Assembly (NCBI RefSeq): GCF_963921235.1
Contig: NC_086097.1
Location: forward strand, 60,638,001 to 60,702,000
Source of the DNA: Mobula hypostoma
Lineage: Eukaryota
Reading direction: 5' to 3'
DNA: 64,000 nucleotides
A program made the translations under genes and the position numbers. This document shows, piece after piece, positions 12,199-12,600 of this stretch. The number at the start of each line of letters is the position of its first letter. Position 1 is the stretch's first letter. The notes under the pieces were generated by a model that worked only from the letters and a program-made list of their open reading frames with translations, was not told the DNA's origin and made no database searches.

Positions 12199-12600
12199 GA
12201 GATCTTTGACCATTGGTCCAAGATCCTTTGCAGCCTCACCACTGGAAACTGCTAGTGTTAGCTGGGGTTCCCTGTTCTCCTGATCTTGTATTGCCCACTG
12301 AACCTCGTGGGGGAGTTGCACTACTGCCACATTACGAGAATCAGCCACATATATTTTGGAGCATTATAGAACAATTTCTTTACTGATATAAGGGTCCAAT
12401 TTCTGATGCATAAAATGGTAATTTCCAGCCCAGTCATAATAAGCTGTACAGTGAAGATAACAGTGCCACTTACTGAGTTGTAGGTCGAAACAGAATCTAG
12501 AGAAATCTCTAGAAGATTTCAAGGCACTCTCCTAAAAGTGTTCCAAACTCCTTGATAAGTGGGTTGAGAGTAACTGCCACTTATACAAAATAGGTTGACT
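12199..12600 (-). pseudogene. ERV-encoded 2H phosphoesterase (CNPase-like) domain
   Basis: One frame: QPILYKWQL...YLHCTAYYD...SKEIVL*CSKIYVADSRNVAVVQL...EPQLTLAVSSGEAAKDLGPMV; in-frame stops at 12532-12534 and 12364-12366. Confidence 0.78.

Follow-up and report, generated by a model that had tools for sequence, protein, structure and literature searches.

A probable CNPase-related 2H phosphoesterase domain, now decayed, in the pol remnant of an endogenous retrovirus of the ray Mobula hypostoma

The window, a stretch of 64 kb (64,000 nucleotides) of the Mobula hypostoma genome, carries on its minus strand the decayed core of what is very probably a 2H phosphoesterase domain related to vertebrate CNPase, lying in the pol of an endogenous retrovirus (ERV) between remnants of protease and RT (Table 1). 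A CNPase-like 2H domain in this place, in a virus of a cartilaginous fish, had been claimed in an earlier note on this DNA; the host is indeed a ray, and a profile match, its controls and the fold ranking of a relative bear the domain assignment out. The note had further proposed that this virus lineage encoded an accessory nuclease. The domain is not specific to the lineage, however, being common to at least seven ERV lineages of the ray genome and to a Pol protein of pike, and in one younger family of the ray it evolved under purifying selection.

Table 1. Retroviral features in the window (positions are those of the window)
Feature	Position	Strand	Basis
Decayed CNPase-like 2H phosphoesterase domain core of retroviral pol	12199..12600	-	Frame, stops, profile match, shuffle controls
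First 2H motif, H-C-T	12445..12453	-	Aligned with CNPase HCT; His in 48/58 covering paralogues
Second 2H motif position, Q-L-T in the window copy	12256..12264	-	Aligned with CNPase HIT; His in 36/48 covering paralogues
Probable C-terminal portion of the domain, or RT linker	12073..12198	-	Four stops: 12198, 12159, 12147, 12105
Retroviral aspartyl protease remnant	12611..12911	-	Pfam RVP; stops 12904, 12757; catalytic motif decayed
RT N-terminal stub, about 55 codons	11900..12070	-	Sister copy L024 matches younger-family Pol 1008-1061 here
Junction into start of integrase	11811..11899	-	DNA match to L022 up to its +766
33-bp tandem repeat, 4.5 copies	13057..13203	.	Built of the element's own pre-protease sequence
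Interrupted integrase C-terminus and env pieces, same family	13216..15161	-	Matched at the DNA level to +1490 to +2607 of the family

The 134 positions of the domain core are read from 12600 to 12199, with stops at 12534 and 12366. The frame and its two stops, the intact HCT and the QLT that stands 63 codons further on are all as the earlier note described. The 2H superfamily has paired H-x-T/S motifs; here the second reads QLT and the core is broken twice, and active membership of the superfamily does not apply to this copy, which is a pseudogene. The note's statement that the copy is dead likewise holds. The domain likely extends in the same frame beyond 12199 to about 12075, since a sister copy (L032) is collinear with residues 929-1061 of a younger-family Pol (E 4e-5).

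The neighbouring pieces are equally decayed. The protease remnant lies upstream of the domain in a different frame, and its match to Pfam RVP, over 12931-12611, is weak (E 0.0025, 18.5 bits, below the cut-off of 20.7); protease, domain and RT stub occupy three different frames in all. An RT N-terminus had been placed from 12058 onwards, of which a stub of about 55 codons stands, itself without a match in Pfam; this locus lacks both the RT core and RNase H. The adjoining junction has no direct protein match of its own and is assigned through L022, which matches integrase from its position +729; family homology in the window stops at 11811. On the other side, the integrase C-terminus and env pieces sit upstream of the protease, out of order, and are joined to it via the 33-bp tandem repeat. 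Pfam gave no match for the pieces that we take to be env, a label assigned by eye from motifs, and the surroundings of the window copy hold no LTR of its family. The window element is a dead and rearranged fragment from an old family of class I endogenous retroviruses. Just past its end, between 10700 and 11600 on the plus strand, decayed frames resemble by eye the 3' end of a LINE, for which Pfam is blank. Elsewhere in the window, the plus strand from 1590 to 4804 holds three long stop-free frames of 239, 495 and 239 codons, flanked by 200-bp direct repeats (119-318 and 4863-5062) and possibly belonging to another LTR element.

A search of the M. hypostoma genome with the domain, in which 150 of 165 candidates were scored, gave at least 111 matches at E<=0.001 (matches, not copy numbers). 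From the better-scoring part of this list we inspected 62 loci other than the window, two of which are divergent relatives (L038 and L084). His occupies motif 1 in 48 of the 58 loci that cover it, where 26 have Thr and 19 have Met at the third position. A His at the second motif of paralogous copies, on which the earlier note's reading turned, is found in 36 of 48 covering loci, and the third position there is Thr or Ser in 42 of 47. Both His are present in 25 of the 41 loci that cover all four motif positions, and both full motifs in 11; no full-length copy of the domain free of stops and frameshifts is among the 62 loci. The arrangement seen in the window recurs in the first 20 loci, with a protease piece ahead of the domain in 19 and an RT stub behind it in 17. 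Taken at 10 kb, these 20 loci share about 4.5-5 kb of sequence, and five of them have paired LTRs that differ by K2P 0.14-0.25, which points to old insertions. Integrase begins within about 700-900 bases of the domain start, directly after the RT stub, in 10 of the 20, and a decayed RT core is kept in one (L031), the remaining loci having no informative match there. Most of the window's family thus probably consists of a short non-autonomous derivative that lacks RT core and RNase H, the window copy included, and for that reason the family likely carried the domain as a passenger. Gag was not detected in the family, which is weak evidence. An RT-less and apparently gag-less derivative with protease, 2H domain, integrase and env sequence has spread widely (L021-L040).

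Unbroken relatives were reached through the protease. The family protease as query returned five proteins, among them an unbroken Pol from pike (P0065) with protease at residues 1-93, RT from 383 and an HCT...HVT pair in between; the family profile matches it at residues 157-242 (prob 81, E 1.2e-5). Used against the ray genome, the pike domain gave 116 matches at E<=1, 108 of them at E<=0.001, mostly to another ERV family, younger and much less damaged, with 35-41% identity, in which the order is protease, domain, RT and RNase H. Searches from two weak matches opened further lineages, with 97 and 150 matches. The domain is homologous to that of at least six further ERV lineages of the ray genome, one of them younger and with long open frames; the window's family is only about 20% identical to the other domain-bearing lineages. 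In a tree of 45 rows, seven deep groups are well supported, one of them being the window's family; two further rows stand singly on long branches, and how the groups join is unsure. In the Denticeps protein P0062, to judge by eye, no more than the initial part of the domain stands between protease and RT, an arrangement that suggests a deletion or a skip in the gene prediction.

Direct searches gave little. With the window sequence alone there was no match in Pfam and none longer in the protein collections, PDB sequences gave chance matches only, and the family profile was likewise blank in direct database searches. Against 25 vertebrate CNPases, the family profile gave weak matches (E 0.01 and 0.027, prob 4 and 2), with both motifs in register. 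We therefore built a non-family profile of 41 rows, namely the pike domain and 40 single-frame rows derived from 75 segments of other ERV lineages, with near-duplicates thinned, frame-shifted rows dropped and no row from the window's family; His stands in 37 of the 41 rows at each motif column. With it we obtained matches to the window domain (prob 97.7, E 1.6e-12), to the window's family (prob 98.4, E 5.5e-15) and to the 25 vertebrate CNPases (prob 92.0, E 6.6e-7), the last with both motifs in register. The link to CNPase is accordingly a transitive one, as the direct match between family profile and CNPases is weak. In control tests, the window sequence scores 42.1 bits under the 41-row profile, a score that neither 2000 residue shuffles (best 8.4) nor 2000 shuffles of six-residue blocks (best 34.6) ever reach. 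When all six reading frames of the window are searched, the domain is the sole significant match (iE 1.2e-11; next 1.3), and 18 of 55 CNPases fall at iE<0.01 against 0 of 55 shuffled ones. The Pfam CNPase model (PF05881) is not exceeded at its cut-off by the window domain, by the pike Pol or by any ERV, and in the ray genome it finds six host exons only. An exon of the host CNP is 100% identical to a protein labelled Mobula hypostoma. The host CNP gene was seen twice (L041-L046; G000:C91, 33.78 and 33.96 Mb); at the first place the last exon precedes the first two, through duplication, rearrangement or an assembly fault.

Structure models were of low quality. Modelling with the window row placed first gave an unusable, all-helix result (pLDDT 54, pTM 0.29), and a model of a relative, a stop-free domain of the younger family with 45 rows, was also of low confidence (pLDDT 53, pTM 0.54) and has strands at both motifs. 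A Foldseek search of 350,542 chains with this low-confidence relative gave no match at E<=0.001; all 41 rows listed are nevertheless 2H enzymes, with CNPase at rank 1 (E 1.5e-3, prob 1.00), the fungal RNA kinase entry 6u05 at 40, RICH at 48 and MHV ns2 at 50 (E 0.16). TM-scores range from 0.34 to 0.51 with rmsd mostly 9-13 Å, and the best query TM-score among the rows listed is that of 6u05 (0.51). The ESM Atlas places the pike domain next to tRNA_lig_CPD and 2H-SAK clusters (0.83, a lead only). The blank direct searches, the weak direct profile match and the low-confidence models speak for a reading in which the stretch is no 2H domain and its motif pair and faint CNPase resemblance are coincidental. 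Against this stand three partly independent lines, the profile, the Atlas features and the fold ranking, all of which indicate 2H, together with the shuffle controls, and we consider such a coincidence extremely improbable.

The domain is closest in kind to those known from fish retroviruses. According to a passage in PMC4977317 (citing Basta et al. 2009), a CNPase or macro domain is encoded now and then by epsilon-like ERVs of ray-finned fish, and one in PMC9503650 (citing Mazumder et al. 2002) names walleye dermal sarcoma virus among the fish retroviruses with 2H domains. A CNPase-like domain of fish retroviruses has thus been in print since 2002-2009, and the window copy is an ordinary one of many. 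Like it, those domains are CNPase-like and sit in a class I fish retrovirus, and the homologous domain of pike P0065 holds the same place between protease and RT; the window differs in that the host is a cartilaginous fish, the copy is broken and the family is mostly without RT core. A term search of the shark ERV paper PMC4422223 found no mention of the domain, and the literature searched yielded no functional test of a fish-retrovirus 2H/CNPase domain.

With the catalytic domain of vertebrate CNPase and fish RICH (PF05881; PDB 9etl, 2xmi, 1woj, 2i3e), the ERV domain shares the order of the HCT and HxT motifs, their spacing and the intervening strands. It is shorter, however (about 165 versus about 210 residues), falls below the Pfam cut-off and lacks the N-terminal P-loop domain of CNPase, being preceded by a protease and embedded in Pol. 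Its likeness to MHV ns2 (PDB 4z5v) lies in the superfamily, in being virus-encoded and in a similar size, but in the low-confidence model ns2 is a much weaker structural match than CNPase. Furthermore, the viral 2',5'-phosphodiesterases, which include the rotavirus VP3 domain, are stand-alone accessory proteins or domains of capping enzymes, in contrast to the Pol insert described here. The fungal tRNA ligase CPD (PF08302) and phage 2H-SAK (PF22547) represent the clusters nearest to the pike domain in the Atlas; unlike the fungal ligase, the ERV domain has no ligase or kinase partner domain.

Evidence that the domain was of use comes from the younger family. In the window's family, dN/dS is 0.54 in frame versus 0.72 and 0.77 off frame, values confounded by CpG decay and unusable. 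In the younger family, pairs drawn from two subfamilies give the domain a dN/dS of 0.23 (72 pairs among 18 copies) and RT one of 0.12 (22 pairs among 13 copies), the pairs not being independent in either case; within subfamilies the values are 0.45 and 0.42, respectively. The domain was therefore constrained while that virus replicated, and such purifying selection implies that it did something for replicating viruses. What it did may have depended on binding rather than on catalysis, for example as a decoy against host CNP; according to a passage of PMC5758531, mammalian CNP binds to Gag of HIV-1 and suppresses particle formation in a way that does not depend on its enzyme activity. Over the deep lineages, however, conservation is highest in the columns of the catalytic His and Thr (37, 33, 37 and 39 of 41 rows), which favours catalysis and makes a binding role highly improbable.

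The best explanation overall, which we favour with modest confidence, is a pol-borne, CNPase-homologous 2H domain that would have hydrolysed 2',3'-cyclic phosphates on RNA ends or on small nucleotides in the replicating virus. The choice of substrate within the 2H superfamily is not readable from the fold, and the opening of cyclic phosphates is our best guess because the nearest relatives by profile, Atlas and fold ranking are 2',3'-cyclic phosphodiesterases. Retroviral Pol enzymes are made within Gag-Pol, from which the viral protease frees them, and enter the particle with RT. From its position in pol, the domain would thus have been synthesised as part of Gag-Pol, excised by the protease and packaged at Pol stoichiometry. 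Catalysis would presumably be metal-independent through the two HxT motifs, as in CNPase, and could produce 3'-OH ends where host endoribonucleases have left cyclic ones on primer tRNA or viral RNA; alternatively, the enzyme might have cleared 2',3'-cyclic nucleotides.

The main rival reading is the destruction of a nucleotide messenger (2-5A or 2'3'-cGAMP), making the domain an immune antagonist like coronavirus ns2 or rotavirus VP3. The ray has three OAS-like loci clustered in its genome (C78, 31.04-31.17 Mb; L171-L174), and MHV ns2 is among the Foldseek rows, yet it ranks behind about 40 CNPase-type rows for the low-confidence model. An RNase L family model found just two loci in the ray, which we take from a motif to be IRE1-like, although RNase L is not thereby proven absent. 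A broken OAS-like gene was also seen (C59, 16.07 Mb) beside the three clustered ones. In the literature, a passage of PMC9503650 proposes 2-5A and cyclic oligonucleotides as targets of viral 2H enzymes, and one of PMC1845163 credits the elephant shark with both OAS and RNase L. In pike, on the other hand, the domain is unbroken, and pike is a teleost, a group described in passages of PMC1845163 and 10.1101/693333 as lacking OAS and RNase L. The action against 2-5A suggested in the earlier note is weakened because the fold ranking favours CNPase and a teleost ERV keeps the domain, so that the opening of cyclic phosphates is likelier than 2-5A destruction, and a messenger-destroying enzyme of either kind seems unlikely to us.

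A third possible substrate is ADP-ribose 1'',2''-cyclic phosphate, which would place the domain in the same pathway as the macro domains of other fish ERVs. The occurrence of either a CNPase or a macro domain in epsilon-like fish ERVs (passage in PMC4977317) is compatible with this, as is the resolution by 2H enzymes of cyclic phosphates both in RNA ends and in cyclic ADPr (passage in PMC9503650). However, Pfam found no macro domain in the younger-family locus or in the pike Pol, and CPDases of plant or yeast type are not among the 41 Foldseek rows listed, and we regard action on this compound as improbable.

The window copy itself, dead, truncated and one of many, matters little. What is worth keeping is the breadth of the domain, which occurs in seven or more deep ERV lineages within a single ray genome, together with purifying selection on it in the younger family, and the unbroken pike homologue makes the question of its substrate directly accessible in vitro. 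At its most far-reaching, hydrolysis of cyclic phosphates might make the domain an ancient, standard fourth Pol enzyme of a branch of fish retroviruses, healing cyclic-phosphate ends on primer tRNA or genome within the virion, a proposal that we hold to be distinctly doubtful. If it were true, reverse transcription in these viruses would survive host nuclease attack, and their virions would package an RNA repair step unknown in mammalian retroviruses.
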